A stretch of 64,000 nucleotides of DNA from Candidatus Saccharimonadales bacterium (GTDB taxonomy: Bacteria > Patescibacteriota > Saccharimonadia > Saccharimonadales > UBA10212): contig JBBRSU010000002.1 of NCBI GenBank assembly GCA_038245195.1, positions 35,091 to 99,090 of the forward strand. Reading direction: 5' to 3'. The notes beneath the pieces were generated by a model. The model was not told the DNA's origin, ran no database searches, and saw only the letters and a program-made list of their open reading frames with translations. Numbering within the stretch: the first letter of the stretch is position 1; every line of letters begins with the position of its first letter. Of the stretch, positions 4,046-51,977 are shown in pieces. Position numbers and translations under genes: made by a program.

Positions 4046-7000
4046 TTACTCCTTAGAAGCAACCATTTCTGAACGTTGAACTGCTTCGCGCTCGTCTTCA
4101 AGCTCTTCAAGTGGCTTAGCTCCAGTACCCACCGGTATCCTTCGGCCGAGAATTACATTTTCTTTTAGGCCGTACAAATGATCAACCTTACCACTGGTAG
4201 CGGCGGCAATTAAGACTCTGGTGGTGTCTTGGAATGAAGCGGCCGATAGGAAAGAGTCGGTTGATAGTGAGGCTTTGGTTATTCCCAAAAGTAACTGAGT
4301 GTATTTAACGATGTTTTTACCAGCTTCGGCTAAATTGGTGTTGGCGTCTTCGACGGCCAGCTTGCTGACAACATCGCCAGTGATGAACTCGCTGTTCCCA
4401 GCATCCTCGATTTGAACTCGGCTGAACATCTGTCTCACGATGACTTCAAGGTGTTTATCGGCAATTGTTTGGCCTTGACTAGCGAAGATGTACAGGATTT
4501 CATTCATGATATAACGCTGCGTAGCATCAACGCTTTGCAGACGCATTAAGTCATGTAAATTAATAGAGCCATTGGTTAAACGTTGACCAGCTACGACTTC
4601 GTCACCATCTGCGACCTGCATCTGTTTAAAGCCGGGAATTTCGTAGCGCATCATGGTTTTGGCGGTAGGTGTGATTGTGATTACACCGTCTTGGACATGA
4701 GCCTTGCCAGTCATTGGTGCAGTGATTGGCTCGCTTTGGTCTTCCTGAGCGGCTACAACATCACCAAGATTAACTTCGTTGCCATCTTTGATTTGGGCAG
4801 TTCGGCCGTTGAGCTCAATTTCTATGGCCTTTTGCTTCTTTGCGGTTACCTGAGCGATATAATGATCGCCTTCTTCCCAAAGATTTACCTTGCCAGAGAT
4901 ATCTGTGAGATAAGCTTGGCCTTTAGGAATCCGGACTTCTAGAAGCTCTTCTACGCGGGTAAGGCCCTGCGTAACGTCATCGCTAGCAGTTACAGCACCG
5001 GCACGGTGCTTAGAGTCAAGTGACAGCTGAGTACCAGGCTCACCGATAGACTGAGCGGCCACAACCCCAATTGGATAATCGGAAGCTACTAGTTCTCTGG
5101 TAGCTAGATCAACCCCATAACTTTCACGGCTGACGCCCCGAGTATTAATGTTTGATAGAACGCTCTTGATACGAACCGTGGCAACCGCAGCGTCTTCGTG
5201 AATGGCTTTGGCGATTTTCTCCGTGATTAGCTCACCAGCCTTAACATGTTTCTTGACATTTTCGGCGGCAAATCGGCCCTCGAGACGATTGCCGAAGTCG
5301 ATGCCTATCGCCTCTGATTCGACTCGTCGGAGCTCAAAACCGGGGTCACCAGCGTCTTGCTCGACAGTGAACACGTCTTGGGCAACGTCTACTAAGCGGC
5401 GAGTAAGATAACCTGAATCGGCGGTACGCAAGGCAATGTCGATTAGAGACTTACGGGTACCTCTTGTGGCCGTAAAGTATTCCAGCGGATTGAGGCCGTA
5501 CTTATAGTTAGATCGAACTGGTAGCTCCATAGCTCGGCCAGTGGCATCGGCTCGAATGCCAATCATGCCAACCGAGTCTTTCATCTGGCTCAAGTTACCT
5601 CGAGCACCGGAAGCCACTGCGATTGACATGGTGTTATCTTCAGTGGCGAACTGCTCGGCTAACGCTTTTTCGACTCGACTGTCAACTTCCGACCAAGCTT
5701 CCACTGTTAAGCGATAGCGCTCGTCGTCGGTAATGAAACCGGAGGCGTATTGCTTAGAAACTTCGGTGGCATTCTTTTCGCCTTCGTCAACAATGCCGGA
5801 TAGAACCTTTAGGTCCGAGAAGTCGTCCATGCCTATAGAGATTCCAGACGCGGTGGCGTACTTAAAGCCGAGGTCTTTCAAATCATCGGCAATTTCGGCG
5901 GTCTTTTCCTGACCATAGTTTTGGTGAGTATAACTCATCACAAAATCAAGTTTCTTGTTGTTCATAGTCACATTCTGGAAAGGAAAACCTTCTGGCAGAA
6001 TTTCGTTGAACAATATTCGCCCTGCGGTAGTCTTTTGGATTTCACCACGGAATGGGGCTTCAACTCTAGTCTGTAGGGTAATCTTGTTATCATCTAGGGC
6101 TAGAATTATCTCTTCAACACCGCTGAACTGTCGATATTTGGTTTTTTCGCTACCTGGTCGCTCGTAGGTTAGGTAGTAGCAACCCAAAACAATATCTTGT
6201 TCAACGTGTAGGATCGGTGAGCCATCGGCTGGCTTAAGTAAGTTTTTATTAGCCGCCATAATGTCGCGGGCTTCGGCCTGGGCTTGATCGCTTAATGGTA
6301 AGTGGACAGCCATTTGATCGCCGTCAAAATCGGCGTTAAAACCCTTGCAGACTAATGGGTGAAGCTGAATCGCTTTACCTTCAATTAGCACTGGTTGGAA
6401 AGCCTGGATGCTCAATCGGTGTAGACTGGGTGCTCGGTTTAAAAGCACATACTTACCCTTGATGACTTCATCGAGTGCATCCCAAACAGCAGCTTCGTTT
6501 GATTCAATCATTCTAGTGGCGCTTCTAATATTATGAGCTAATTCTTGGTCGATTAATCGGCCGATTACGAACGGCTTGAACAGTTCCAGGGCCATCGTTT
6601 TAGGCAAACCGCATTGGTGCATCTTTAGTTCTGGACCGGCCACAATTACAGAACGACCAGAGTAGTCTACGCGCTTACCGAGTAGGTTCTGACGAAAACG
6701 ACCCTGTTTACCCTTTAGCATATCGCTAAGGCTCTTTAGACGGCGGCGTTGGCCGGTGGCAGCTACGGCTCGGCCAGAGCGAGTGGAATTATTATCGATT
6801 AGTGCATCGACCGCTTCTTGTAGCATTCGTTGTTCGTTTCGTCGAATAACTTCTGGGGCATTAAGCTCCATCAGTTTTTTGAGTCGGTTATTACGGTTAA
6901 TTACACGACGGTACAAGTCGTTTAAGTCGGAGGTGGCAAAACGGCCACCGGTAAGTTGAACCATCGGCCTTAGATCTGGAGGTATCACCGGTAGCACGCT

Positions 7001-7888
7001 AACCGCTAAACTACTGGGTTTAATCCCGGCCCGTTCCATACTTTCTAGCAGGCGCAAACGCTTCATAATTTTCTTTTTGCGCTGGCCCTTTGCCTCTTCG
7101 GCTTCTTTGTTCAAATCATCAATTAGTTTTAGTAAATCAACTTCTTCGAGCAACTCCTTTAGGGCTGAGCCACCCATGCCGACAGCAACTAATGCTCGTA
7201 ATTCTAACGGCAAGTTACGAAAATCGGTTTCACTCATTAATCGAAATTTTTCTAAGCTTTCGATTTGGGCATTAAAGACTTCGAACTCTTTGGCTAACTC
7301 TTCTAGCTCTTTGGTACGAGCTTCGGCTAACGCATGAACATCAGTGCCGTCAGTCTTGGCTTCGTCTTCGTAGCGAGCATTAATGGCGGTTTCAGCAGCA
7401 GTGAATTCAGCTTGGCGATCGGCCTTAATTTTGTCACGCTCTTCGATATTTACCGATTTTACGATGTAGCTGGCAAAGTAGGCCACTCTTTCAAGGTTCT
7501 TAACAGTTAAACCTAAAAGTAGGCCCATGGCACTAGGTGTACCTCGCAAGAACCAGATATGAGCCACCGGCGCGGCCAGGCTGATATGGCCCATACGCTC
7601 ACGCCGAACTATGCTCCGGGTAACTAGCTCACCGTTCTTATCAACAGCTGCTTCGCGGGAGCGAACTCCCTTGTATTTAGCGTCGTGGGGGTTAATATCC
7701 TTAACCGGGCCAAAAATTCGCTCACAGAACAAGCCATCACGTTCTGGTTTCTGGGTACGATAATTTATGGTTTCAGGTTTTGTAACTTCGCCGTAGCTCC
7801 ATTCCAAAATATCGTCGGGACTAGCAATCGCCAGCCTAACGGCATCAAAATCGGCAATATTGGTTCCACTAGTAGTATATTGACGCAT
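4046..7888 (-). CDS. rpoC: DNA-directed RNA polymerase subunit beta-prime (both Zn-site cysteine sets absent)
   Basis: 1280 aa. It has the catalytic [12 protein letters not shown] motif, [21 protein letters not shown], and trigger loop/bridge helix regions. It lies directly downstream of rpoB with a 2-nt gap. Confidence 0.98.
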   Translation of the reverse strand: [1280 protein letters not shown]

Positions 7889-16942: not shown

Positions 16943-17027
16943 TGGTGGGGATGAAAGGACTTGAACCTTCACGTCTTGCGACACCAGGTCCTAAACCTGG
17001 CGTGTCTACCAATTCCACCACATCCCC
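16943..17027 (-). tRNA. tRNA-Leu (anticodon UAG), type II with a long variable arm and encoded CCA
   Basis: Minus-strand sequence: GGGGATGTGGTGGAATTGGTAGACACGCCAGGTTTAGGACCTGGTGTCGCAAGACGTGAAGGTTCAAGTCCTTTCATCCCCACCA. It has a 7-bp acceptor stem and the anticodon stem-loop CCAGG-TTTAGGA-CCTGG, with a GTC-GCAA-GAC variable arm and a T-loop TTCAAGT. Confidence 0.92.
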
Positions 17028-36563: not shown

Positions 36564-38159
36564 CTAGCCGACAACTCGGTAGACTTCTTCAATAGTTGTT
36601 AAGCCGGCAATGGCTTTTAAGACTCCGTCGTGAAGCATGGTACGCATGCCCTCTTCTACTGCTTTGGCTTGGAGCATTTCGGTGGTGATTTGGTTTGGTG
36701 ACAAGCGAAGCAGTTGTTGAACACCATTAGTCATTTGTAGTTGTTCGCGCAAAGCCAGTTGACCAGAATAGCCGAAGGGGTTTGCGGTTGAAGCGGCAGG
36801 TTTATAAAGAGTTAGATTGTCTAGATTTGGTTTTTGAATATGTTGTGGCATACCGTCGATCACGGCTTTAATCTGAGCTTTGAGGGCCGAATCAGGCTGA
36901 TAGGCCTGTTTACTATCGGCGTCCAGGCGACGAACCAGTCGTTGAGCCATCACCAGGTGCATTGCACTGGCAAACAGCGGATTGATTCCAACCATATCCA
37001 GCATCCGGGTCAAAGCGGCTGCCGCACTGGAGGCGTGAAATGTGCTTAGTACTAAATGGCCTGTTAGAGCACCTTGCAAAGCGGTCTTAGCAGTATCTTG
37101 GTCCCTTATTTCGCCCACCATAACCACATCGGGGTCCAAGCGTAGCACCGCCCTTAGCCGTTCGGCAAAATCATGGCCCTCCAGCTCGCCCTCAACTGGG
37201 ATTTGGACTACTCCGGGTAGATTGTACTCAACCGGATCTTCTAGGGTAATTATTTTTCGTTCAGGAGTATTTAAAGTGCTAATTAATGAATAAAGTGTAG
37301 TTGTCTTACCGGACCCAGTCGGGCCAACAATTAGCACCATGCCAGTGGGGTGCTGAATAATATCATTAACCACGGCGGTTTCTTGCCCGCTCAAGCCTAG
37401 ACTACTAAGGTTCAATAGCTCTAGGTTCATATTAAACAGTCGCATCACCACGTCCATGCCGTAGACCGTTGGAACAGTTTCAACTCTAAGATTTATGGTA
37501 ACTTCCTCACCGGTCGCCATTTTATATGCTCGGCTAATATGGCCGGTTTGAGGATCTTTTTCTTGAGTCGAAATATTGGCAGCACTGGCCAAGCTGGCAC
37601 TAAGATGTCGATATTTTTCATGGCTAATATAGGCGACGGGGTGTAGCACTCCATCAACCCTAAACCGGGCCCGAATATTGTCCTTTTGGCACTCTAGGTG
37701 AATGTCGCTGGCTTTTAACTCGTAAGCTTGTTGGACCAAAAACGCCAACATATCATCGGGGCGGACTTTTTCCAGAGTTTGAGAAACTTCGTCGACAATT
37801 TTGGTTTGATCATTCCCACTGATGCTAATATCTTCGTACTCGACTTTTTTAGGCGGATCGTACAGTACCATATATTCGCGATAGCCGGTCTCAGAGATAA
37901 TTGAGAATTCTAAGCGTTGGTCGGTAAATCGACGGGTTAGGTTATTAAGCGTTTGTTGAGAAGTTGTGGTAGTTATACCGAAGTGAATATTATGTTCATC
38001 GGCAGTCAATGGAATGGCTCTAAAATTTCGTAGCTCGTCAAGGTTTAGCACGTTTTTAAAAAGTTGTTTTTGAAGTTTTGAACTATCTACATAGCTCATT
38101 CCCAAAACCGCCGCTCGATGAGCGGTGATTTGTTCTTCCTGAGTCCTAGCATCTTGCAT
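36564..38159 (-). CDS. GspE/PilB-family type IV pilus / type II secretion assembly ATPase
   Basis: 531 aa with an N-terminal GSPII_E-type domain, Walker A GPTGSGKTT, an Asp box, Walker B DPDVVMVGEIRD and a His box LSTFHA. The usual C-terminal tetracysteine positions are not Cys. Confidence 0.9.
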   Translation of the reverse strand: MQDARTQEEQITAHRAAVLGMSYVDSSKLQKQLFKNVLNLDELRNFRAIPLTADEHNIHFGITTTTSQQTLNNLTRRFTDQRLEFSIISETGYREYMVLYDPPKKVEYEDISISGNDQTKIVDEVSQTLEKVRPDDMLAFLVQQAYELKASDIHLECQKDNIRARFRVDGVLHPVAYISHEKYRHLSASLASAANISTQEKDPQTGHISRAYKMATGEEVTINLRVETVPTVYGMDVVMRLFNMNLELLNLSSLGLSGQETAVVNDIIQHPTGMVLIVGPTGSGKTTTLYSLISTLNTPERKIITLEDPVEYNLPGVVQIPVEGELEGHDFAERLRAVLRLDPDVVMVGEIRDQDTAKTALQGALTGHLVLSTFHASSAAAALTRMLDMVGINPLFASAMHLVMAQRLVRRLDADSKQAYQPDSALKAQIKAVIDGMPQHIQKPNLDNLTLYKPAASTANPFGYSGQLALREQLQMTNGVQQLLRLSPNQITTEMLQAKAVEEGMRTMLHDGVLKAIAGLTTIEEVYRVVG

Positions 38160-38230
38160 GTACCTCTATTAAAACATAAGCGGATAGTTTAGCGATAGAC
38201 TGATAAAGCTACCGGTTGTAGACTTATCAA

Positions 38231-38725
38231 ATGACGAAAGTCGATTTGGTGGTTTATAACGTCCGCTCGGCCCACAATGTTGGTAGTTTGCTAAGAACCG
38301 CCGACGGGCTAGGTATTAACCAGGTTTGGTTGTGTGGCTATACTCCCTACCCAGCTAGCCCAGACGATGAGCGGTTGCCTCACGAGGCTAAGAAAATTAC
38401 TGAACAGATTCATAAAACGGCTTTGGGTGCCGAAGATAGCATTAAATGGCAGAGGCTTTCCAGATTGGAGGACTGCTTTGAAATGTTAAAACAGCGAGGA
38501 TACCATTTAGCAGCTCTGGAGCAAACTAAGTCTGCTCAGCAGCTCAAGGACTTCAGACCACCCGCAAAGTTAGCTTTAATAGTTGGCAATGAAGTTGCCG
38601 GGTTAGATAAAGCTATTTTAAATATTGTCGATAGTCACCTAATAATACCTATGCACGGGCAGAAAGAATCATTTAACGTATCAGTGGCCGCCGCCATTGC
38701 TTTGTACCATTTAATTAATCTCTGA
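38231..38725 (+). CDS. SpoU/TrmH-family RNA 2'-O-methyltransferase
   Basis: 164 aa: NVGSLLRTADGLG, LIVGNEVAGL and IPMHGQKESFNVSVAAAIALY, which are SPOUT motifs. Confidence 0.85.
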   Translation: MTKVDLVVYNVRSAHNVGSLLRTADGLGINQVWLCGYTPYPASPDDERLPHEAKKITEQIHKTALGAEDSIKWQRLSRLEDCFEMLKQRGYHLAALEQTKSAQQLKDFRPPAKLALIVGNEVAGLDKAILNIVDSHLIIPMHGQKESFNVSVAAAIALYHLINL

Positions 38726-38729
38726 AACC

Positions 38730-38758
38730 TAGACAAACAAACAGCTTAAGTTTAAAAT
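38730..38758 (+). promoter_or_regulatory. Candidate promoter of the CAP-domain gene (TAGACA-17-TAAAAT), with the -10 ending 8 nt before the ATG
   Basis: TAGACA is at 38730-38735, followed by a 17-nt spacer and TAAAAT at 38753-38758, then ATAGCTAA and ATG 38767. There is no Shine-Dalgarno sequence. Confidence 0.5.
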
Positions 38759-38766
38759 ATAGCTAA

Positions 38767-39801
38767 ATGGCTAAAATAAAAAAATACGGTTCAGATAGTC
38801 ATAAAGCCCGTCCCAGGGGAATCAATCGGCACGCCTTCGAACGGGTTTACTGGCCCTATATACCAATTGTCCTAGCAATCAGCTTGTTGTTAGTAGCCGG
38901 TGGGCGAGGTGGTGCTTTGCAAGCGGCTTACCATCATCCGTTTGGTAAAGTTTTAAGTTATTCAACCAGCATGGGAATAGATGCTTTGCTAAGCGATACA
39001 AATTCGCAACGGTCTGCCAATGGGGTTGCCGGACTGAGCCTCAATTCGAAACTTGATGCTGCCGCTCAAGCCAAAGCTGATGATATGGCCACCCGAAATT
39101 ATTGGAGCCACTACACACCCGAGGGCAATCCGCCCTGGATTTTCGTAAATGACCAAAGCTACTCTTACCAAAAATTAGGGGAAAATCTAGCCACCGGATT
39201 CAGCGACGAACAGTCGACCATAAACGGCTGGATGGCTAGCCCGCCACACCGAGAAAATTTATTAAATCCAGCGTTTAGTGAAGTTGGTTTCGGGTATGCC
39301 AATAACCCAGATTACACGGCTGCTGGTGGAGGCCCAATGACAATCGTGGTAGCTTTTTATGGTCAGCCACAAGTTTTAGGGGCTTCAACTACGGCAGCCG
39401 CTTCGCCCGCTAATAGTCCACCGGCAGCGGTAGTCCCAAACACCCCTGCTCCAAAAAGCTCAACAGCACCGGTTGCCCCCATAGAAGCACAGCCCGCAAC
39501 CCCAACCAAACAACCAGCCACCACTGCCACTCCTAAAAAGAATTTAGTATCACCGGTAAAAACCTCACATATTCAACTAGCCGCTCCAAAATTGGGCTAT
39601 GGGGCACTAATCACATCTCTGAGTATCATTACTGCACTAGGTCTAGGCGGTTTCTGGTTAAGCCGGCACTTACGAGCCCTTAAGAAGTTTTTACTAAACG
39701 GCGAGCGATATGCCATTGGACATCCGCTAACCGATTTGGGCTTAGCCATGATAGCCGCCCTTCTGTTTATCCTCAGTCAAACGGCTGGTCTAATTCAATA
39801 A
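38767..39801 (+). CDS. CAP/SCP (YkwD-like) domain protein with a Pro/Thr/Ala-rich linker and C-terminal TM helices
   Basis: 344 aa. It has an N-terminal TM helix and a CAP domain (LNSKLDAAAQAKADDMATRNYWSH...GWMASPPHRENLL). A PATP-rich stretch follows, then two hydrophobic C-terminal segments. Confidence 0.85.
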   Translation: MAKIKKYGSDSHKARPRGINRHAFERVYWPYIPIVLAISLLLVAGGRGGALQAAYHHPFGKVLSYSTSMGIDALLSDTNSQRSANGVAGLSLNSKLDAAAQAKADDMATRNYWSHYTPEGNPPWIFVNDQSYSYQKLGENLATGFSDEQSTINGWMASPPHRENLLNPAFSEVGFGYANNPDYTAAGGGPMTIVVAFYGQPQVLGASTTAAASPANSPPAAVVPNTPAPKSSTAPVAPIEAQPATPTKQPATTATPKKNLVSPVKTSHIQLAAPKLGYGALITSLSIITALGLGGFWLSRHLRALKKFLLNGERYAIGHPLTDLGLAMIAALLFILSQTAGLIQ

Positions 39802-43484: not shown

Positions 43485-43901
43485 TTAAGTCTTTAAGTAT
43501 TTGCCGAGATTTTTTACGGCTTGCTTTGCTTGTTTCACGGCTCTATTTAAATCTGGATCGTTGGCTTCACCATTCTTAACGGCCTTTAGGACCTGGGAAG
43601 ATTTATCTTGGGCATCCTTAGCTTTCATAACTGCTTCATTAAAATCAGCCCTGGCAGTCGAGCTAAGTGCCACAGTTTTTAGCTTAGTTGATTTAATCAA
43701 GTCTTTTAGCTCTAAGTTAAGTTCATCCAGTTGGTCCTCTACTGAGAGCTTTACATCATCGGCCTTAGAGGCAATATCGCCTCTAGTTTCTTTACCACTT
43801 TTAGGAGCCGTTAATATACCCGCTAGGTAGCCAGCTGCACCAGCTATGGCCGAGCCTATCGCTAGTTTTCGAACAGTGTTCTCTTTTCGTCTAAATGCCA
43901 T
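43485..43901 (-). CDS. YtxH-domain protein
   Basis: 138 aa with an N-terminal hydrophobic Gly-zipper segment (AIGSAIAGAAGYLAGILTAPKSGKETR), then helical Lys/Asp-rich repeats. Confidence 0.8.
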   Translation of the reverse strand: MAFRRKENTVRKLAIGSAIAGAAGYLAGILTAPKSGKETRGDIASKADDVKLSVEDQLDELNLELKDLIKSTKLKTVALSSTARADFNEAVMKAKDAQDKSSQVLKAVKNGEANDPDLNRAVKQAKQAVKNLGKYLKT

Positions 43902-43905
43902 TTAA

Positions 43906-44166
43906 TTAATCCTTTCTTTTACGGAATTTGGTGGTTTGCTCAACTATATTACCAATTAGTTTGAGGACTGCAAGCGGTGAGGCTGCTTTTTCGAAGGTGT
44001 TGGCAGCTGAAGCTACCGAGTCGGCAACGGTTTCGGCTTGCTCTGTAATCCTACGTAATTGCTTTAAGATTTTTACGACATAAACCATGGCTACTATTAA
44101 GACAACTAGAAACAGGGCTAATACCGAGCTAACAATTATTACTAAAACTTCAGACGCTGTATTCAT
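43906..44166 (-). CDS. Small membrane protein (DUF948-like)
   Basis: 86 aa with one N-terminal TM helix followed by an amphipathic helix. Pairing with a YtxH gene is a common arrangement. Confidence 0.7.
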   Translation of the reverse strand: MNTASEVLVIIVSSVLALFLVVLIVAMVYVVKILKQLRRITEQAETVADSVASAANTFEKAASPLAVLKLIGNIVEQTTKFRKRKD

Positions 44167-44216: not shown

Positions 44217-45641
44217 TTACAGCCCAAGCTGTTTTTTTATGAGTTGTTGGGCTATTTGGGGATTAGCTTTTCCTTGACTATTAGCCATAACCTGTCCAAC
44301 CAAAAAACCAATAGCTTTTAGTTCACCGCTTTTTACGTCGTTAGCAGCTGATTGATTTTGAGTTAATACTTCGGTAACAATTCCGTTTAAATCTGCTTCG
44401 TCGGAAACTTGTGAATTATCAGATATTAATTTCGTAACATCACTGTCTGGATTCTTTATAAGCTTTTGTAATGCGTCGTTAGCTGCATTACTACTTAAAG
44501 TTTTTGATACTACGCTCTCGGCGACTTTGATATGATCTTGGACTCTTATTTTCAAAGTTGCCGAATTTTCGAGTGAGTCAAACGCCAATCGGCGGGCCAC
44601 TTCTTCATTTATTCCTAAGTTAAGAGCGGACGATAGTTTATTAAAAACCTCTGAATTGTCTAAGATGTCTTCGGCAACATTTTTAGTAATGCTTAACTTG
44701 TTAAGTATTCTACGGATTTCGCTGGGTAGTTTGGGTAGTTCAGATTTAATTCGATTAACCAGTTTTTGATCTAGTTCTATTGGTGGAATATCGGGTTCTG
44801 GCATGTACCGATAGTCGTGGGCTTCCTCTTTTCCCCGCTGTGGAATAGTTTTTTGAGTAGCTTCATCCCAACCTCGGGTTTCTTGAACTACCGCCTCACC
44901 TTTTTCGCTAAGTTCTATTTGTCTATCGATTTCGTAAGCTACTGCACTCTCTACGCTTCTAAAACTATTTAAGTTTTTAATCTCGGTTCGATTCCCAAAT
45001 CTACCGACTTGTTGGCTGACACTAATATTTACATCAAACCGCATATTTCCAAGGTATAAATCTACATCACTAACTTCGGCGTATTTCATAAGTAGGTAGA
45101 GCTCACGAGCAAAAGCTTTGGCTTCGACTGGCGAGGCTATTTCTGGCTCGCTAACAATTTCTAGCAGCGGCGTACCGGCTCGGTTTAAATCGACTAATGA
45201 GTAGTCGGTGCCGGCTGGGTGAGTATTTTTACCAGCGTCTTCTTCTAAATGGGCCCGAGTTATATTGATTTTTTTGATTATACCGTCGACTCGAATCTCA
45301 ACATAACCACCTTTAATAAACGGGTCTTCGTATTGGGTAATTTGGTAGCCCTTGGGTAAATCGGGGTAATAGTAGTGCTTGCGGTCAAATTTGCTAAATG
45401 TTTGTGGTGATGTATTAAGCGCAAAAGCTGCCCGGGTGGCTAACTCTAAGGCAGCTTGGTTCAGAACTGGCAAAGCTCCAGGCAGACCCACGTCTATATG
45501 GCTAATTAAGGTGTTTGGTTTAGCGTCTCTGGCATCATTAGACACTGCCGAGAACAGCTTGGTTTTGGTTTTGAGCTGTACATGACATTCGATGCCAATA
45601 ACCGGTGTATAAGTCTGTCGAATTTTATCAGACACAGCCAC
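44217..45641 (-). CDS. gatB: Asp/Glu-tRNA(Asn/Gln) amidotransferase subunit B
   Basis: 474 aa: VIGIECHVQLKT, RFDVNIS, and a C-terminal YqeY/GatB tail. The GTG start overlaps the orf134 stop by 1 nt. Confidence 0.95.
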   Translation of the reverse strand: MAVSDKIRQTYTPVIGIECHVQLKTKTKLFSAVSNDARDAKPNTLISHIDVGLPGALPVLNQAALELATRAAFALNTSPQTFSKFDRKHYYYPDLPKGYQITQYEDPFIKGGYVEIRVDGIIKKINITRAHLEEDAGKNTHPAGTDYSLVDLNRAGTPLLEIVSEPEIASPVEAKAFARELYLLMKYAEVSDVDLYLGNMRFDVNISVSQQVGRFGNRTEIKNLNSFRSVESAVAYEIDRQIELSEKGEAVVQETRGWDEATQKTIPQRGKEEAHDYRYMPEPDIPPIELDQKLVNRIKSELPKLPSEIRRILNKLSITKNVAEDILDNSEVFNKLSSALNLGINEEVARRLAFDSLENSATLKIRVQDHIKVAESVVSKTLSSNAANDALQKLIKNPDSDVTKLISDNSQVSDEADLNGIVTEVLTQNQSAANDVKSGELKAIGFLVGQVMANSQGKANPQIAQQLIKKQLGL

Positions 45642-46045
45642 TACAGCGCCCCTAGGTCTTTCAGGCCTTGCTTAAAACCGGCTAAAGCCGTCTGGGCTTC
45701 GCGTTTTTTTAGCCGAACGCCCGGTTCGTGGACTAAACGATTCCGCAGTTTATGGGCATACCATACCGAGTCGTTATCGCTAATAATTCGTTGAGCCGAA
45801 ACTAGCCTCTCGCCCATAGTTTTGCCTCTAAAATGACGTTTTTTAAGAGCTAGATCAAGAAGTTTATCAGCATCGACAATTGCTAGAATCATACCCTCAG
45901 GGGTTTTGACTCTAGATAGAAGCTCTAGCCACTGGTCATGGAAATATCTTTGGTCAAGTCTGGGTTGACGAAGTCGGCCAAAGCGATTAATGATTAGCAA
46001 TGCCATAACCCCAAAAATAATAATGATTACTAGAAAGATTGTCAT
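45641..46045 (-). CDS. Membrane-anchored HEPN/DUF4145-like protein (Rx4H motif) embedded in the gatCAB operon
   Basis: 134 aa. It has an N-terminal TM helix (IFLVIIIIFGVMALLII) and a ~100-aa helical domain with ADKLLDLALKK...GERL...AHKLRNRLVHEPG. It has an ATGA overlap with the gatA stop and a 1-nt overlap with the gatB start. Confidence 0.7.
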   Translation of the reverse strand: MTIFLVIIIIFGVMALLIINRFGRLRQPRLDQRYFHDQWLELLSRVKTPEGMILAIVDADKLLDLALKKRHFRGKTMGERLVSAQRIISDNDSVWYAHKLRNRLVHEPGVRLKKREAQTALAGFKQGLKDLGAL

Positions 46046-47445
46046 ACCAGTGCCTCAAAAGCTTTAGCCAAGCCAAGCATCTGCCTATCACCCTTCATTG
46101 GAGCGATTATTTGTAGTCCGACCGGCAAGCCATCCGCCACACCAGCCGGTACACTTATGGCTGGGTTGCCCGACATATTAGCAGCCACGGTCATAATATC
46201 GGTAAGGTACATCTTTAGGGGGTCTTTTGTGCGTTCGCCAATCTTGAAGGCAGTTTGCGGGCAGACTGGACCGACCAAAAAATCAAATTTGCTAAAAGCT
46301 TCAGCAAAATCGTTAATAATTTTAGTTCTAACGATTTGTGCTTTCTTGTAATAAGCGTCGTAGTAGCCACTGGATAAAACGTGGGTGCCAATCATAATTC
46401 GACGCTTGGCTTCGGCACCAAAACCTTCTTCGCGGCTAAGCTCATAGGTCTCATCTAAGTTTGAAGCGGTCTTGGCACTATGACCGTATCGCTGGCCGTC
46501 ATAACGGCTCAAATTACTGCTAAGCTCGGCCGGGCAGACAATGTAGTAAACCGCCAGAGCTAGCGGCAAGCTGGGCAAGCTGATTTCTTGGATTTGGGCT
46601 CCGGCTTGGGCTAGTTTTTCAATTGAGCCATTAATAACTGTTTCGACGCCTGAGTCCAGGTTGTCCATATATTCATTAACAACGCCGATTTTCATGCCTC
46701 TAATCTGAGTATCTAGTTTGGAGTAGGTCATTTTATCTCGTTCGATAGTAGTACTGTCTAGCTCGTCTTTGCCAGATATAACATCCAAAACCAAAGCGAC
46801 ATCTTCTACATTTGATGCCAACGGCCCAACTACATCGGTACTACTAGCCATGGCAACTACACCACTACGGCTAATTAGGCCATAAGTTGGCTTTAAGCCG
46901 ACCACCCCGCTGAAACTAGCTGGCAAACGGACTGAGCCGCCGGTGTCTGTGCCAAGTGCAAACGGTGCAATTCCTAAAGCCACGGCCGCGGCTGAGCCGC
47001 CAGAACTACCACCAGCAACCCGGGTCTTATCGTAAGGATTTTTTGTGACGAACCAATCAGAATTTTCAGTACTAGACCCATGAGCGAAGGCATCTAGATT
47101 AGCTTTGGCTACGCAGATGGCGCCCTCGGCCTCCAGCTTTTCGATAACTGTAGCTTGATACGGTGCTTCGAATGACCGCAAGATGTTACTGGCGGCTGTA
47201 GTCTTGCCGCCGTAAGTTAAAAAATTATCTTTGGCAATAAACGGGACGCCTGCCAAACGACCTTTAGGCTGTTTATCAATCTTTGCGGCTCGCTTTAAGG
47301 CCGATTCCTCCAGGGTTGAAATTATGGCTCCATATTCCTGGTTGTCTTTGATAGAACTTAGCGATTGTTTTACCAAATCACTGGCTTTGAGTTTTCCAGC
47401 TCTAACTTCCTCGGCAATTTGGGCAATTGGTTGCCAGCTTGCCAT
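46042..47445 (-). CDS. gatA: Glu-tRNA(Gln) amidotransferase subunit A
   Basis: 467 aa with the amidase signature GGSSGGSAAAVA and a Ser-cisSer-Lys context. Confidence 0.95.
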   Translation of the reverse strand: MASWQPIAQIAEEVRAGKLKASDLVKQSLSSIKDNQEYGAIISTLEESALKRAAKIDKQPKGRLAGVPFIAKDNFLTYGGKTTAASNILRSFEAPYQATVIEKLEAEGAICVAKANLDAFAHGSSTENSDWFVTKNPYDKTRVAGGSSGGSAAAVALGIAPFALGTDTGGSVRLPASFSGVVGLKPTYGLISRSGVVAMASSTDVVGPLASNVEDVALVLDVISGKDELDSTTIERDKMTYSKLDTQIRGMKIGVVNEYMDNLDSGVETVINGSIEKLAQAGAQIQEISLPSLPLALAVYYIVCPAELSSNLSRYDGQRYGHSAKTASNLDETYELSREEGFGAEAKRRIMIGTHVLSSGYYDAYYKKAQIVRTKIINDFAEAFSKFDFLVGPVCPQTAFKIGERTKDPLKMYLTDIMTVAANMSGNPAISVPAGVADGLPVGLQIIAPMKGDRQMLGLAKAFEALV

Positions 47446-47446
47446 A

Positions 47447-47737
47447 CTATAGGACCCGCTTAACTTTAAATTGGCCGTCTTGAATCACCGGAGCGTTCTT
47501 TAATAAGTCCTTGGTTTGATAACCATAGTCTTTTACCACGTCTTGGCGGCTAACATTTTTAAGCCCGGTAACTTGATAGGTCGGTGACAACCCGGTCACA
47601 TCAACTTTATCAAGCGTTTCGACATAGTTGAGTATTTCAGATAGTTCACTTCGAAGCAGTTCGACCTCACTGTCACTTAAGCGTAATTTGCTCAAAGCAG
47701 CCAATTTTAAGACGTCGTCTCGACTCAATTTACTCAT
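47447..47737 (-). CDS. gatC: Asp/Glu-tRNA(Asn/Gln) amidotransferase subunit C
   Basis: 96 aa: VLKLAALSKLRLSDSEVE...ILNYVETL. It lies directly upstream of gatA. A TGCTATAAT box sits 13 nt upstream of the ATG. Confidence 0.9.
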   Translation of the reverse strand: MSKLSRDDVLKLAALSKLRLSDSEVELLRSELSEILNYVETLDKVDVTGLSPTYQVTGLKNVSRQDVVKDYGYQTKDLLKNAPVIQDGQFKVKRVL

Positions 47738-49752: not shown

Positions 49753-50331
49753 TTAGGGCACCGCCGATAATTTTGTAGTCGTCGACTTAACGGCATCGTT
49801 TGTACTGCTTTGGAGAGTCCCTGCCGCAGAGTTGGGATCTGATATAGCCGGACATAATGCTTGCGAATGGACATAGATATAATAGTACCCGTTTACGATA
49901 GAGTACGGTGGTGGGTTTTGATCTTTAATGACTTCAGAAGCGGTTGTTCCTGTCTGATAAATATCGTTAGGCCCAAGCTTCTCTATTGCTCCACCATAAT
50001 CCGAGCATTTTCCATTAGTCGCGTTGTCAAATTCAACCGAAGAAAAGGACGCAGTGTTATTAGCAATTGAATATTTAAGATTCAAGACTCCATTATAAGG
50101 TGCACTTACTCCCCATTCCTTGAGAGTTAGGTGTCTTTGAGTTTGAATCCCAGGACTTGATTTAAGACTACCGCTAGGAGCACTCTGGCTGATTTTGTCA
50201 GATTGGGCTAAAATTTTATCAGTTTGGTGTTTGGTATGAACGACGTACCAGCCTACGCCTCCAACTGTTATCAAAATTATTAATATAAGAACTGCTTCTA
50301 GTGCAGCGAAGCCTTTTTGAGTTTTATTCAT
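49753..50331 (-). CDS. Type IV pilin-like protein (prepilin N-terminal cleavage/methylation motif)
   Basis: MNKTQKG/FAALEAVLILIILITVGGVG matches the class III signal (G-F-x-x-x-E plus a hydrophobic helix). A C-terminal Cys pair is present. I trimmed the start to ATG 50331; the track ORF begins at an upstream TTG. Confidence 0.8.
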   Translation of the reverse strand: MNKTQKGFAALEAVLILIILITVGGVGWYVVHTKHQTDKILAQSDKISQSAPSGSLKSSPGIQTQRHLTLKEWGVSAPYNGVLNLKYSIANNTASFSSVEFDNATNGKCSDYGGAIEKLGPNDIYQTGTTASEVIKDQNPPPYSIVNGYYYIYVHSQALCPAISDPNSAAGTLQSSTNDAVKSTTTKLSAVP

Positions 50332-50372
50332 AATCATAAATATAAATGGGGTGTTGTCAAAACACAAGCAGT

Positions 50373-50942
50373 TTACTGATAGAGTTGATGGTAATTAGCG
50401 TGGGTTTTATCTAAGATTGCCGTTAACTTTTCGATCAGTCTATCGGCATCAGTATCGGATACCACTAACTCGGGGTCGGCGTTGGGTAATAGCTTAAGCA
50501 AACCTTCGATTTGATCTCCGATTCCGCCAGCTCCACTGAGCAGTCCAAGTGGCGTACGGGTTTCCATCGCAACCGTAAATTCATGCAAAGTGCCCAGCCG
50601 TCCACCAATACTCACTACAGCGTCGGCCGAATTAACTAATAACGCATCACGACCTGAATAGTGCAGGCCAGTATAAAGAATTGCATCATAGGCTTCGGTC
50701 GGTAAATGATACTTCATAACATGCTCTACTTTGGTAGCGGCCGGACTAATCCCAAGGCTCATTTTGCCGCCAGCTTTTTTATAGCCTTCGGCCGCCGAGT
50801 TTGGCAGCCCGGTAGTCGCCCCAGTCATTAAACTATGCCCAGCTCGGGCAATCGCCGCCCCGGCTAGCTCGGCAATTACTTTACCTTGCTCGGCACTTGC
50901 CCCTTTTGCGGCCCCAGAAACACAAATCTGATACTTTCCCAC
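50373..50942 (-). CDS. LOG/TIGR00725-family (SLOG Rossmann) protein
   Basis: 189 aa: ICVSGAA...SLMTGATTG...SIGGRLGTLHEF, which aligns with the GGGxGTxxE LOG-family motif. Confidence 0.8.
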   Translation of the reverse strand: MGKYQICVSGAAKGASAEQGKVIAELAGAAIARAGHSLMTGATTGLPNSAAEGYKKAGGKMSLGISPAATKVEHVMKYHLPTEAYDAILYTGLHYSGRDALLVNSADAVVSIGGRLGTLHEFTVAMETRTPLGLLSGAGGIGDQIEGLLKLLPNADPELVVSDTDADRLIEKLTAILDKTHANYHQLYQ

Positions 50943-51977
50943 CTAAACTCCTTCTACGTACTCGAAGACCGGTTGATTTACTAGCGTTAAATTGCCGATT
51001 GGTTTGAAGATGGCTGGTAGGTTATCTTCATCTGGTAGTAACTGGTTTTCATAGAGGTTCACTAATTGTCTCCAGAATGATTTTTGAGCCGATCCCAAAA
51101 CTGAAGTATCCGAAGATTGCCCTAAACTGTGATTTGTAGCGACATCATACAAGTTAAATGAAACTTTTTGGTCACCGATCATTGCCATTAAGCCATCGCT
51201 GTCCGCCCACCAGCTCAGAGTCGAGCTAAACTGAGCAACCACTTCTGACACATCTAGTTGTTTAAACTCAGAAAGCCGCTCTAGCAACTCTAAAACAATC
51301 ATCAGTAAACTTACCGATTTGTTTTCGGAGAACTCTAGTACTCCAATGGCACCAAGTTCGTTATTATATAGCACGCTTGATTGGTCTTGATCAGTTTTCG
51401 ATTCAAGTCTGGAGATAGTACTTATATTTAATTTCCGTCTTTCAAAAGCTGTGGAGTCTAGCACTGAAACCAACTTTAAATGAGTTTTGTTCCAGGCCGG
51501 AGTTTCTGCCCGAGCCAGGTTTAGATAGGTAGCTGTTAAGACTTGGCGTTTTATTAATGATTCAACCGAGCGGTAATGCAATTGTTTCATCAATTTGCGT
51601 GGAGGATGTTGCTGGAGTAAGGCTTTGGCTACTGGACATTTCAAGACCCATCTGTCGGGCAAATCTAAATTATTGGAGATAATTTCTACAGCTTTTTGGG
51701 CTTTTTGGCTATTACTACTCTTTGTAGTACCGAAATATTCGTCAAAGCGCCTTGAATCGGTTTGGAATTTTATCAATAAAGCCTGATAAAGCTCTGGAGC
51801 AGTTGTATCGTTGGGATCAAGCTGAAGTTGACTAATTTTTAATCGAGTTTTCTGAATATGTTCAGCTAATTGACGGACATCGTTACTGGGATGGCCGTTA
51901 TTTTGCTCCAAAAGATTGATAGCATTTTTAATTTCGCGCTCTGGATAAGCCAAGATTTCCGAGATAAACTTAGACAT
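50943..51977 (-). CDS. Hypothetical protein, 344 aa, no recognisable motif
   Basis: It is a long intact ORF that abuts the LOG-like start with a 0-nt gap and overlaps the kinase stop by 1 nt. I could identify no family. Confidence 0.7.
   Translation of the reverse strand: MSKFISEILAYPEREIKNAINLLEQNNGHPSNDVRQLAEHIQKTRLKISQLQLDPNDTTAPELYQALLIKFQTDSRRFDEYFGTTKSSNSQKAQKAVEIISNNLDLPDRWVLKCPVAKALLQQHPPRKLMKQLHYRSVESLIKRQVLTATYLNLARAETPAWNKTHLKLVSVLDSTAFERRKLNISTISRLESKTDQDQSSVLYNNELGAIGVLEFSENKSVSLLMIVLELLERLSEFKQLDVSEVVAQFSSTLSWWADSDGLMAMIGDQKVSFNLYDVATNHSLGQSSDTSVLGSAQKSFWRQLVNLYENQLLPDEDNLPAIFKPIGNLTLVNQPVFEYVEGV

Follow-up and report, generated by a model that had tools for sequence, protein, structure and literature searches.

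What does a small, membrane-anchored protein do between two subunits of an enzyme of aminoacyl-tRNA synthesis? In many bacteria, Gln-tRNA(Gln) and/or Asn-tRNA(Asn) can be made only through GatCAB, which is regarded as a soluble three-subunit enzyme. We examined this question in a Candidatus Saccharimonadales bacterium (GCA_038245195.1), using a window of 64,000 nt (contig JBBRSU010000002.1, positions 35,091-99,090 of the forward strand) in which the minus-strand gene order is gatC, gatA, a 134-aa open reading frame here called X, and gatB. The genes and the signals at their junctions are as follows.

47447-47737, minus strand: gatC (96 aa), which opens the cluster (Pfam GatC, 3.4e-19)
46042-47445, minus strand: gatA (467 aa), glutaminase subunit (Pfam Amidase, 2.2e-135)
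46053-46056, minus strand: SD-like GAGG within the 3' end of gatA, 7 nt 5' of the X ATG (sequence read; resemblance to consensus only)
46042-46045, minus strand: ATGA, overlap of the X start codon and the gatA stop codon (sequence read)
45641-46045, minus strand: X (134 aa), putative membrane-anchored HEPN-fold protein, stop codon included (open reading frame, homologues, AF2 model)
45649-45652, minus strand: SD-like GGGG, 7 nt 5' of the gatB start (sequence read)
45639-45643, minus strand: TAGTG, 1-nt overlap of the X stop codon and the gatB GTG (sequence read)
44217-45641, minus strand: gatB (474 aa), kinase/transamidase subunit with a GTG start (Pfam GatB_N, 7.4e-111, and GatB_Yqey, 2.9e-24)

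The original prediction, made from the letters of the window, had X overlapping both neighbors and translated together with them, and its gene coordinates and both codon overlaps agreed in full with the list of open reading frames and the raw sequence. Only 1 nt separates the end of gatC from the start of gatA. The X ATG (46045-46043) and the gatA TGA (46044-46042) share bases, and the final G of the X TAG (45643-45641) is the first G of the gatB GTG (45641-45639). A promoter and terminator scan from 43.3 to 50 kb returned sites no more numerous than those in shuffled controls, with no minus-strand site, terminators included, inside the gat cluster. The window holds a single tRNA gene, a tRNA-Leu at 16943-17027 that is unrelated to the cluster. 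A weak Pfam GatF match was also recorded on the GatC of the window.

Translational coupling of X within gatC-gatA-X-gatB was upheld when other genomes were considered. The gatA-gatB interval of relatives had been pointed to as informative, and X was found there in all 80 of the Saccharibacteria genome loci examined. Among the 77 of these loci that could be measured, 44 had the 4-nt gatA/X overlap, the X stop and gatB start overlapped or lay no more than 10 nt apart in 78%, and junctions of X with its neighbors were overlapping or no longer than 10 nt in about 80% of genomes. Because X has 1,431 close homologues, forms a family of 1,867 representative clusters (50% identity), and keeps the gatA-X-gatB order in 80 of 80 loci, it is a real gene, far beyond chance, and not a fortuitous open reading frame. 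It is single-copy, fixed in position, and vertically conserved in at least 524 species genomes, and its divergence matches that of the amidotransferase subunits (mean identities: X 56%, GatB 57.5%, GatC 61.5%). No domain fusions were seen in the family; longer members carry only N- or C-terminal low-complexity or transmembrane (TM) extensions, or are chimeras.

The protein itself has the following parts.

45971-46042, minus strand: N-terminal TM helix, residues 2-25, predicted N-out/C-in (AF2 model)
45644-45964, minus strand: predicted HEPN-fold domain, residues 28-134 (domain-only AF2 model and Foldseek)
45866-45868, minus strand: codon of D60, invariant acidic residue of helix 2 (alignment)
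45752-45754, minus strand: codon of H98, invariant His, one turn from the Rx4H motif on its N-terminal side (alignment)
45728-45745, minus strand: R101-N102-R-L-V-H106, HEPN R-[polar]-x3-H motif at the C terminus of helix 3 (sequence and model)

A single N-terminal TM helix followed by an all-helical domain of about 100 aa had been proposed, and both are present. The AF2 helix at residues 2-25 coincides with strong hydropathy (Kyte-Doolittle 3.2) and is followed by a net charge of +4. Across the family, the TM segment has a mean Kyte-Doolittle value of 2.84, the N-terminal stub has a median length of 4 aa, the net charge over the 15 aa after the TM segment is +3.3, and 95% of members obey the positive-inside rule. 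With an N-out/C-in anchor, the HEPN domain of X is probably cytoplasmic.

HEPN domains, as defined by Anantharaman et al. (2013; PMC3710099), are four-helix up-down bundles of about 100-120 aa with an insert between helices 2 and 3 (H2 and H3). An Rx4-6H motif closes helix 3 or opens the H3-H4 loop, its Arg followed by a polar N/D/H, and an auxiliary acidic residue, typically in an Ex3[KR] context, lies in helix 2; the RNases among them are metal-independent endoribonucleases, usually with a composite dimeric site. The full-length AF2 model of X (pLDDT 96.5) shows one TM helix and a four-helix bundle, and the domain-only model (pLDDT 97.6, pTM 0.90) places H1 at 32-44, H2 at 49-69, H3 at 91-106, and H4 at 114-130. 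The H2-H3 insert, residues 70-90, contains a short helix (77-83) and the conserved G74-x-T-M-G-E-R-L. In the model, the topology thus agrees with the published definition in its four helices, its H2-H3 insert, its Rx4H ending H3, and the polar N after the Arg. The helix 2 acidic residue is D60 in a local A-D-K-L-L-D, not Ex3[KR]. When the domain was compared by Foldseek with 350,542 PDB chains, the best 16 matches were all HEPN proteins, including 5yep_C (TMq 0.67, prob 0.99), 7bxo (TMq 0.69), 2hsb, and 1wty. Probabilities for these HEPN matches were 0.95-0.99 and TMq values 0.56-0.69, but E-values were only 0.26-1.

Sequence comparisons were weaker. Single-sequence searches of Pfam, NCBIfam, and PDB sequences with X gave no match, and no Pfam or NCBIfam model reached its curated threshold with any family member. 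Below threshold, the recurrent matches were all to HEPN families and came from three independent libraries: HEPN_Swt1 (best E 0.0088, 16.8 bits against a cut-off of 27.5) and Hypoth_Ymh (0.0022), both centered on H3-H4, together with RiboL-PSP, Cthe2314, cas_csm6 (0.001), Csx1, and CARF_HEPN. An hhalign comparison with a Ymh/TIGR02391 alignment gave a probability of 0.1 over 11 columns, a weak negative since that alignment, built from one bona fide PF09509 protein, was narrow (71-100% identity). The X-family profile matched no HEPN entry among PDB sequences. Its sole match there, to the C-terminal domain of RanGAP1 (E 0.003), covered helices 1-2 and the insert and was set aside as chance helical similarity. 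On the strength of the structural model, the soluble domain of X is a HEPN-type fold with the motif at its defining position. The predicted HEPN similarity therefore stands in the fold and in the place of the Rx4H motif, whereas every sequence-profile match is sub-threshold. The more specific suggestion of a DUF4145- or DUF86-type layout failed: X matches neither Pfam model, and it has neither the RX4HXY Tyr of HepT nor an MNT partner. The DUF4145 model (PF13643) did not match the window X at E ≤ 1 and was absent among the matches listed for 45 profiled members (25 of 92 families).

The proposed R-x4-H motif at R101-H106 is present in the sequence and lies at the end of helix 3 in the model. 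Among 151 representative sequences, R101 was kept in 128, N102 in 125, and H106 in 121, and the full pattern of H98, R101, N102, and H106 in 119. The invariant residues are D60 (151/151), G74, W95, and H98, the last being His in 150 of 150 aligned sequences, including those of a clade that has no H106; D64, also in helix 2, was conserved in 135 of 151. Conservation of the motif among orthologues was thus borne out for about 80-85% of clusters but not for a single coherent clade of roughly 20%, in which R, N, and H106 are gone (AHNLAKKILED and GHKLKKRIIEE are examples of the stretch) and D60, W95, and H98 are retained. Members of this clade have K or R at position 101 or 102 alongside the invariant H98 and still overlap gatA and gatB at the same operon position. 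Since a whole clade lost the site and kept both gene and position, the conserved role of X cannot depend on R/N/H106, and the canonical RNase site is, judging from these alignments, dispensable for that role.

Our literature search found no paper discussing a HEPN-like gene within gatCAB, in line with the unfamiliarity of the arrangement to the original prediction. The fold and a "DUF4145" label had, however, already appeared in supplementary Table S2 of Wang et al. (2023). That table lists SEML1_0535 of Southlakia epibionticum, a gene at the operon position of X that we matched to it by position, size, and fold only. DPAM assigned it automatically to ECOD e1wtyA1 at 0.99; its name, "DUF4145 domain-containing", came from the language model ProtNLM and was not an HMM match, the Pfam column being NA; and it was never discussed despite the fold assignment (Wang et al., 2023). 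In the same study it was scored GD/GD/ES by Tn-seq, in the range from growth defect to essential, and flagged as core and Patescibacteria-enriched, with normalized reads falling from 126.6 to 5.9 to 2.8, much as for GatB and GatA (Wang et al., 2023). The depletion may reflect a polar effect on gatB.

We tentatively favor a reading in which X is a housekeeping accessory factor linked to GatCAB, whose membrane-held HEPN domain binds RNA or tRNA and/or GatB; we judge this plausible, if somewhat short of probable. X would be confined to Patescibacteria (CPR) and serve a housekeeping function, its single-pass N-out/C-in anchor keeping a minimal HEPN domain on the cytoplasmic side of the membrane. 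Saccharibacteria would make it from one mRNA with GatC, GatA, and GatB, its translation coupled to that of both neighbors, and it would assist tRNA-dependent formation of Gln or Asn. The HEPN domain might contact GatB, RNA, or both, the likeliest RNA being tRNA close to its acceptor end, and might thereby keep the amidotransferase, or the tRNAs that serve as its substrates, at the membrane. Because the R-N-x3-H and Asp site is intact in the window X, metal-independent RNA cleavage would also be possible. RNA or tRNA binding, association with GatCAB, and a non-toxic housekeeping status are each what we infer. The link to GatCAB is favored by the conserved synteny and coupling, and the housekeeping status by the GD/GD/ES Tn-seq score, the lack of relatives among IMG/VR viral contigs, and loci without MNT or defense neighbors. 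Against this reading, the most constant neighbor in loci of the Gracilibacteria/Peregrinibacteria type is a bPH_2 membrane protein and not gatB, and some loci have no gat gene within about 4 kb.

A competing explanation, which we consider rather unlikely but the best placed of the alternatives, is that X works close to the membrane and independently of GatCAB, for example in processing or turning over RNA or as a structural partner of the bPH_2 protein, and owes its position to the compact packing of co-expressed housekeeping genes in CPR genomes. Because these genomes are compact, tight packing is weak evidence of shared function, and the Saccharibacteria gat cluster lies in turn within a longer stretch of frozen gene order (uvrB..gatCAXB..p86-ytxH-dnaE). 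The 80 distant metagenome loci included 34 with gat(C)A-X-gatB, 28 with bPH_2-X-(coaE)-gatB, and 9 with bPH_2-X-pth. In contigs of the Gracilibacteria/Peregrinibacteria type, X adjoins gatB or, in some cases, pth. There, bPH_2 always precedes X and is its most constant neighbor, the downstream gene varies among coaE, gatB, and pth, coaE often intervenes, and gatA is not adjacent. Where there was enough flank to judge, gatB lay within 2.5 kb downstream of X in 61 of 71 loci and was absent from that interval in the other 10, and some distant loci had no gat gene within about 4 kb of X. An unrelated role fits less well with the exact placement of X between two subunits with codon overlaps on both sides, maintained class-wide, or with the recurrence of gatB or gatA beside X in rearranged contexts (gatA-X-lgt, X-coaE-gatB, and gatA-X-HisPhos-gatB).

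Another proposal, unlikely in our judgment, would make X an active tRNA endoribonuclease that cuts site-specifically and polices the GatCAB pathway. A dimeric HEPN active site of R101/N102/H106 and D60 would cleave those mischarged tRNAs, Glu-tRNA(Gln) or Asp-tRNA(Asn), that transamidation had missed, or would tune a membrane pool of tRNA. The catalytic signature is complete in the window X, as in the 119 clusters with the full pattern, at the position used by HEPN RNases (PMC3710099); the closest structures are HepT RNases, and HepT toxins have been implicated in cleavage of tRNA and mRNA (PMC11586414). X also adjoins genes for enzymes whose site of action is the tRNA end that carries the aminoacyl or peptidyl group, namely gatB and, in the nine loci above, pth. 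The motif-less clade, which keeps X coupled between gatA and gatB, nevertheless makes essential catalysis by R/N/H106 unlikely, unless H98 and a nearby basic residue form an alternative site, and we see neither an inhibitor nor an antitoxin that would restrain a constitutively produced RNase.

Much less probable is a generic four-helix bundle whose R-x4-H spacing is coincidental and which serves as a membrane-anchored scaffold unrelated to HEPN proteins. Small helical bundles converge easily, no Foldseek E-value fell below 0.26, and the sub-threshold models, the hhalign result, and the spurious RanGAP1 match all count in favor of such a bundle. Four defining features of topology and motif coincide in X, however, and the 16 best PDB chains are exclusively HEPN (prob up to 0.99). 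Weak matches from the three libraries converge on HEPN and not on random helical proteins, and DPAM put the S. epibionticum gene in the same ECOD group (Wang et al., 2023).

Although most prokaryotic HEPN proteins are toxins of conflict systems (PMC3710099), the best structural matches are HepT toxins, and the same-position S. epibionticum gene bears the ProtNLM "DUF4145" label, we rejected as extremely improbable the reading of X as a HEPN toxin or abortive-infection/defense effector (type VII TA-like, DUF4145/Abi-like) lodged in an essential operon, given a single-copy gene inherited vertically at a fixed chromosomal position, no MNT, restriction-modification, or other defense gene beside X in the loci examined, H106-E107-P108 in place of the RX4HXY Tyr, no relatives found in IMG/VR viral contigs, Tn-seq insertions that are depleted and not tolerated, divergence as slow as that of GatB, and genomic data that show no patchy, HGT-like distribution.

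The accessory-factor reading also has a stronger form, in which X would be a true fourth subunit ("GatCAB-H") of a membrane-tethered amidotransferase in Patescibacteria: an essential housekeeping HEPN domain that binds the acceptor arm of Glu-tRNA(Gln) and Asp-tRNA(Asn) and is able, in most lineages, to cleave it. We regard this form as improbable. Were it true, indirect Gln- and Asn-tRNA synthesis and its quality control would be coupled to the cell membrane, and X would be the first bacterial HEPN protein recruited from conflict systems into core translation.

Even in its weaker form, the accessory reading would make X a rare bacterial HEPN protein serving as a vertically inherited housekeeping factor. 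Prokaryotic HEPN domains are mostly toxins or RNases of defense. A coupled gene between gatA and gatB that is found class-wide in ultrasmall episymbionts and beyond, and that is depleted by Tn-seq, hints at an undescribed fourth partner of GatCAB. With this class-wide conservation, coupling, and depletion, X is a candidate, open to test, for a part of the aminoacyl-tRNA synthesis machinery that is peculiar to its lineage. Some orthologues bear the motif and others do not, so that nature itself offers a comparison of catalytic with scaffolding roles, and because genetic tools exist for Southlakia epibionticum, which is naturally transformable, the question can be put directly.

Several known systems resemble X in part. 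The best structural matches are HepT proteins (DUF86-type, of type VII HEPN-MNT toxin-antitoxin systems), with TMq of 0.63-0.69 and probabilities of 0.96-0.99 for Shewanella SO_3166 (5yep/7bxo), Legionella (8xeh/8yuf), and Aphanizomenon (7ae6) structures. HepT and X are alike in their small all-helical HEPN domain, their similar size, and an R-x4-H that ends the motif helix. The Tyr of the HepT RX4HXY motif is AMPylated by MntA (PMC11586414); X has no such Tyr (R101-NRLV-H106-E107-P108, with a family consensus of HE(x)). Nor is an MNT gene found beside X, whose neighbors are gatA and gatB (80/80) and, at a distance, bPH_2, coaE, gatB, and pth. X further differs from HepT in its N-terminal TM anchor, in leaving the Pfam DUF86 model unmatched, and in its vertical inheritance within a fixed housekeeping operon, where it is probably essential rather than toxic.

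The DUF4145 (PF13643)/Abi-like, Swt1-like, and Ymh (PF09509) HEPN families share R-[N/D/H]-x3-H with X, and the X stretch AHKLRNxxVHE resembles the motif helix of the DUF4145, Swt1-like, and Ymh families. They occur in restriction-modification, Abi, or conflict contexts, whereas X lies in a translation operon, and no X member reaches the gathering score of any of their models. The AF0298-like HEPN-T/AbiV group includes the second-best structural match (2hsb). Its members have lost the motif His and retain a second conserved His N-terminal to it with a basic residue (PMC3710099), a pattern also shown by the H106-less X clade in its invariant H98 and K/R at 101 or 102. Most X members, in contrast, hold both histidines, and the genomic context differs. 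The eukaryotic Ire1/RNase L KEN domains and the C6orf70 family are, like X, HEPN domains tethered by a single TM segment, and they serve, as X may, in housekeeping or quality control rather than conflict (PMC3710099). X differs from these proteins in being bacterial and far smaller, with no kinase or lumenal sensor and an extracytoplasmic stub of about 4 aa.

A last comparison concerns the amidotransferase itself. In yeast mitochondria, GatF takes the place of GatC in GatFAB and wraps around the interface of A and B. The cluster described here retains GatC, and X, a TM-HEPN protein without similarity to GatC or GatF, is a candidate subunit only; what it has in common with GatF and bacterial transamidosomes is the idea of a small protein, restricted to one lineage, that joins a core of GatA and GatB.

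The ORF list and the raw sequence place four closely packed genes, gatC, gatA, X and gatB, on the minus strand, joined by two overlaps:

47447-47737, minus strand, gatC (Pfam GatC, 3e-19)
46042-47445, minus strand, gatA (Pfam Amidase, 2e-135)
45641-46045, minus strand, X, an ORF of 134 aa
44217-45641, minus strand, gatB with a GTG start (Pfam GatB_N, 7e-111, and GatB_Yqey)
46042-46045, minus strand, ATGA, in which the X ATG overlaps the gatA TGA (raw sequence)
45639-45643, minus strand, TAGTG, with one base common to the X TAG and the gatB GTG (raw sequence)

Judged by Pfam, the three enzyme subunits GatC, GatA, and GatB are unambiguously identified. An SD-like element precedes each start by 7 nt, GAGG for X and GGGG for gatB (raw sequence). 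The gene order and the ATGA and 1-nt overlaps described in the original prediction proved correct in every factual element. Directly downstream of gatB are an 86-aa TM protein of no family (43906-44166, minus strand) and, further 3', a 138-aa YtxH protein (43485-43901, minus strand; Pfam 7e-13), membrane-anchored and helical like its 86-aa neighbor; the synteny of both genes is kept in most Saccharibacteria loci. Elsewhere, a SLOG cluster-4 (LDcluster4) protein (50373-50942, Pfam 5.6e-28; within 49753-51977, minus strand) is flanked by 204-aa and 344-aa ORFs, both without a Pfam match, and this trio is bounded by uvrB and by a PfkB-family kinase with a class II aldolase. Positions 36564-39801 encode a T2SSE/PilB-type ATPase (36564-38159), a SpoU methylase (38231-38725), and, at 38767-39801 adjoining dnaE, a CAP-domain protein of 344 aa (cysteine-rich secretory protein family). 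In cultivated Saccharibacteria, the genes for type IV pili are essential (PMC10633639).

X is a real gene. A word-indexed search returned 1,431 homologues; the top ones, 133-136 aa long and 72-84% identical, came mostly from Saccharibacteria metagenomes. An exhaustive phmmer search against 1.84 billion representatives gave 1,867 clusters at E<=0.001, of which 527 reached E<=1e-10; almost all measure 130-150 aa and align over their whole length. Searching with a profile built from the most divergent members brought in at least 3,867 proteins, some of them carrying the name Candidatus Gracilibacteria or Candidatus Peregrinibacteria. Mean identity to the corresponding protein of the window among 80 Saccharibacteria species genomes was 56% for X, 57.5% for GatB, 61.5% for GatC, and 45% for the YtxH neighbor, and purifying selection on X is comparable to that on GatB.

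In a pattern scan, at least 524 of 185,579 species genomes encoded a relative. The best 80 of these loci were all from Saccharibacteria and, wherever the flank sufficed, all 80 had the order gatA-X-gatB. The usual larger block is uvrB..gatC-gatA-X-gatB..p86-ytxH-dnaE. At 77 measurable loci, the gatA stop and X start overlapped in 69% (by 4 nt in 44 loci) and were no more than 10 nt apart in 81%; for the X stop and the gatB start, the figures were 57% overlapping and 78% within 10 nt. In Saccharibacteria, X is produced from the gatCAB message. Some loci with typical Saccharibacteria synteny and an X 47-75% identical (L006, L047, L059, L075; protein P0075) carry the MAG labels Binatia, Limnocylindrales, Bacillota, Limnocylindria, or Babeliales, and these MAGs are probably mis-binned or mislabeled.

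A metagenome scan seeded with a Gracilibacteria/Peregrinibacteria-type X profile yielded 80 loci: 34 with gat(C)A-X-gatB, 28 with [lepB(-)]-bPH_2 membrane protein-X-(coaE)-gatB, 9 with bPH_2-X-pth, and the remainder incomplete. Single variants were gatA-X-lgt and gatC-gatA-X-HisPhos-gatB. The block typical of this second lineage comprises a LepB signal peptidase on the opposite strand, a bPH_2 membrane protein of ~200 aa (Pfam bPH_2 2e-5; the most constant neighbor of X there), X, and coaE-gatB or pth, with gatA and gatC not adjacent to X. Examples are:

L088, 5388-8428
L167, 2679-4971
L158, 2485-5244
L135, 3148-4916

The association of X with the amidotransferase is not absolute. An unrelated membrane-proximal function, with X merely sharing an operon with the gat genes, is the strongest rival and would suit the constancy of the bPH_2 neighbor; gatB lies within 2.5 kb 3' of X in 61 of the 71 metagenome loci with sufficient flank, and this, together with the rearranged variants, shows that the link to the amidotransferase, and especially to gatB, survives rearrangement. 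We consider such a function rather unlikely. Our tentative preference, drawn from context only, is that X may be an accessory factor of tRNA-dependent amidation that would work with this machinery at the cytoplasmic membrane face.

Residue conservation in 151 representative X sequences, at the R101-x4-H106 motif and elsewhere, gave the following counts:

D60, 151/151
H98, 150/150 aligned
G74, 149/151
W95, 148/151
R101, 128/151
N102, 125/151
H106, 121/151

Conservation of the motif among orthologues held in part: the complete H98/R101/N102/H106 pattern was present in 119 of the 151, but a coherent clade has lost R, N, and H106. The sequences without the full motif are not scattered; they form this clade (Saccharimonadales) with a few related singletons. 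They read, for example, W-F-G-H-K-L-K-K-R-I-I-E-E or W-Y-A-H-N-L-A-K-K-I-L-E-D, and retain H98, in most cases with a basic residue at 101 or 102; the clade also keeps D60 and W95 and has often gained a C-terminal tail. P0128 (locus L082, 905-1333) and P0130 (locus L090, 5001-5420) still overlap gatA on one side and gatB on the other; P0123, P0135, and P0156 are further motif-less proteins. In the window's X, the R-N-x3-H plus Asp signature is complete, the canonical Rx4H site included; one clade lost this signature and kept the gene. Because that clade keeps a gatA/gatB-coupled gene, the canonical site is not needed for what keeps X in place. An obligate tRNA endoRNase or quality-control role, to which the full pattern in most representatives would be suited, is therefore unlikely; for the accessory factor, cleaving RNA would be optional and would depend on the lineage. 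The motif-less orthologues are a natural catalytic-site-loss experiment.

AlphaFold2 models of X, built with a 45-sequence alignment, reached pLDDT 96.5 for the full length and pLDDT 97.6 with pTM 0.90 for the domain only. The full-length model has an N-terminal helix (2-25) followed by helices 32-44, 49-69, 77-83 (short), 91-106, and 114-130, in agreement with the single N-terminal TM and all-helical domain originally predicted. Hydropathy and charge in 141 family members mark the N-terminal helix as a transmembrane segment: its best 19-residue window has a mean Kyte-Doolittle value of 2.84, the stub before it a median of 4 aa and a net charge of -0.4, and the next 15 residues a charge of +3.3. 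The positive-inside rule is obeyed in 95% of them, so the domain is predicted to be cytoplasmic.

HEPN domains are defined as four-helix up-down bundles of 100-120 aa in which Rx4-6H closes helix 3 and continues into the H3-H4 loop; the Arg is followed by a polar residue (N, D, or H), and helix 2 often carries an acidic one, typically as Ex3[KR] (PMC3710099). The X model shows the four core helices (with an insert at 70-90 carrying the short helix), and helix 3 ends with R101-N102-R-L-V-H106. Helix 2 carries the invariant D60, in a local A-D-K-L-L-D pattern instead of Ex3[KR]. The top 16 Foldseek matches of the domain model among 350,542 PDB chains were all HEPN, including the HepT toxins 5yep, 7bxo, 8xeh, 8yuf, 8xdj, and 7ae6, AF0298 (2hsb), TTHA 1wty, and SSO 2q00, with 4nqf, also HEPN, at rank 21. 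Probabilities were 0.95-0.99 and TMq reached 0.69, but E was only 0.26-1. Weak Foldseek E-values are common for small helical bundles. No PDB entry came as close to the X model as one domain of a 310-aa viral protein (BFVD A0A482IIS2), which gave prob 1.00, E 0.07, and TMq 0.74, with an rmsd of 2.3 A over 101 columns.

No sequence profile reached its curated cut-off for X, and a single profile-profile comparison, with a narrow Ymh alignment, gave a negative result. Fold prediction supports the HEPN proposal. The recurring sub-threshold matches were all HEPN families, in three independent libraries: HEPN_Swt1 (6/45 members), Hypoth_Ymh, RiboL-PSP-HEPN, and Cthe_2314-like HEPN in one, and cas_csm6 and the Csx1, Csm6, and CARF_HEPN models in the other two. 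In the first library, the matches with coordinates given centered on helix 3-helix 4. X is a conserved, TM-anchored HEPN-fold protein and HEPN homology is highly likely; that X is not HEPN at all is very improbable. The proposed HEPN-like layout and motif position stood, but the DUF4145 and DUF86 labels did not, since X has no DUF4145 HMM match and, for HepT/DUF86, neither the Tyr of RX4HXY nor an MNT neighbor. A toxin or defense module, suggested by the HepT matches, is scarcely credible, and the IMG/VR viral contigs yielded no member of the family. The X family profile (A1) also matched the RanGAP1 C-terminal (SUMO-acceptor) domain in PDB (E 0.003; profile positions 30-98, roughly window residues 18-87 but not directly convertible; helices 1-2 and insert, ADKLLD..G.T.GERL), probably a chance similarity of helical segments. 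On the Peregrinibacteria-like contig L158, ~2.4 kb downstream of X, lies a bona fide TIGR02391/Hypoth_Ymh HEPN protein (6757-7473, plus strand; Pfam 7.8e-21), preceded by two small, paralogous-looking ORFs and apparently unrelated to X; it served only to seed the HEPN comparison alignment.

Our literature searches found no paper combining HEPN with gatA and gatB and, for GatCAB with Saccharibacteria, none on X. SEML1_0535 of Southlakia epibionticum is entered in supplementary tables by Wang et al. (Cell 2023, PMC10633639) as a 420-nt 'hypothetical protein'. It lies between GatB (SEML1_0534) and GatA (SEML1_0536), its 4-nt and 1-nt overlaps are those of the window's X, and it is absent from the main text. 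Judged by position, size, and fold, it is a putative ortholog of X. It is flagged as a core, Patescibacteria-enriched family, and Table S2 gives ProtNLM 0.98 'DUF4145 domain-containing protein' and no Pfam match; an independent DPAM run assigned ECOD e1wtyA1 (0.99). Tn-seq HMM calls were GD, GD, and ES, with 8 insertions in the input falling to 5, 3, and 1 (normalized reads 126.6, 5.9, and 2.8), and the nearby YtxH and small hypothetical genes, in the positions of the window's two gatB-downstream genes, were called NE (PMC10633639). Transposon insertions in X could, through polarity, also disturb the coupled gatB. The fold itself is known, and an automated pipeline had assigned it to the same-position gene in another species. 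Apparently undescribed, as far as we found, are the X family, its N-terminal anchor, its phylum-scale gatCAB embedding, its alternative contexts, and the split of motif-bearing and motif-less orthologues. For CPR biology and the study of aminoacyl-tRNA synthesis, X offers a solid lead that can be tested.

In an accessory factor of amidation, the HEPN domain would serve to bind RNA and/or GatB; among RNAs, the acceptor region of tRNA is the most plausible target. Pth, the product of the alternative neighbor gene, also acts on the tRNA ester end. We base the acceptor-region proposal on this neighbor and on the implication of HepT relatives in tRNA cleavage (PMC11586414). In the HEPN families AbiV and AF0298, the motif His is lost and a conserved His N-terminal to it is used instead (PMC3710099); by analogy, H98 could play the same part in X.
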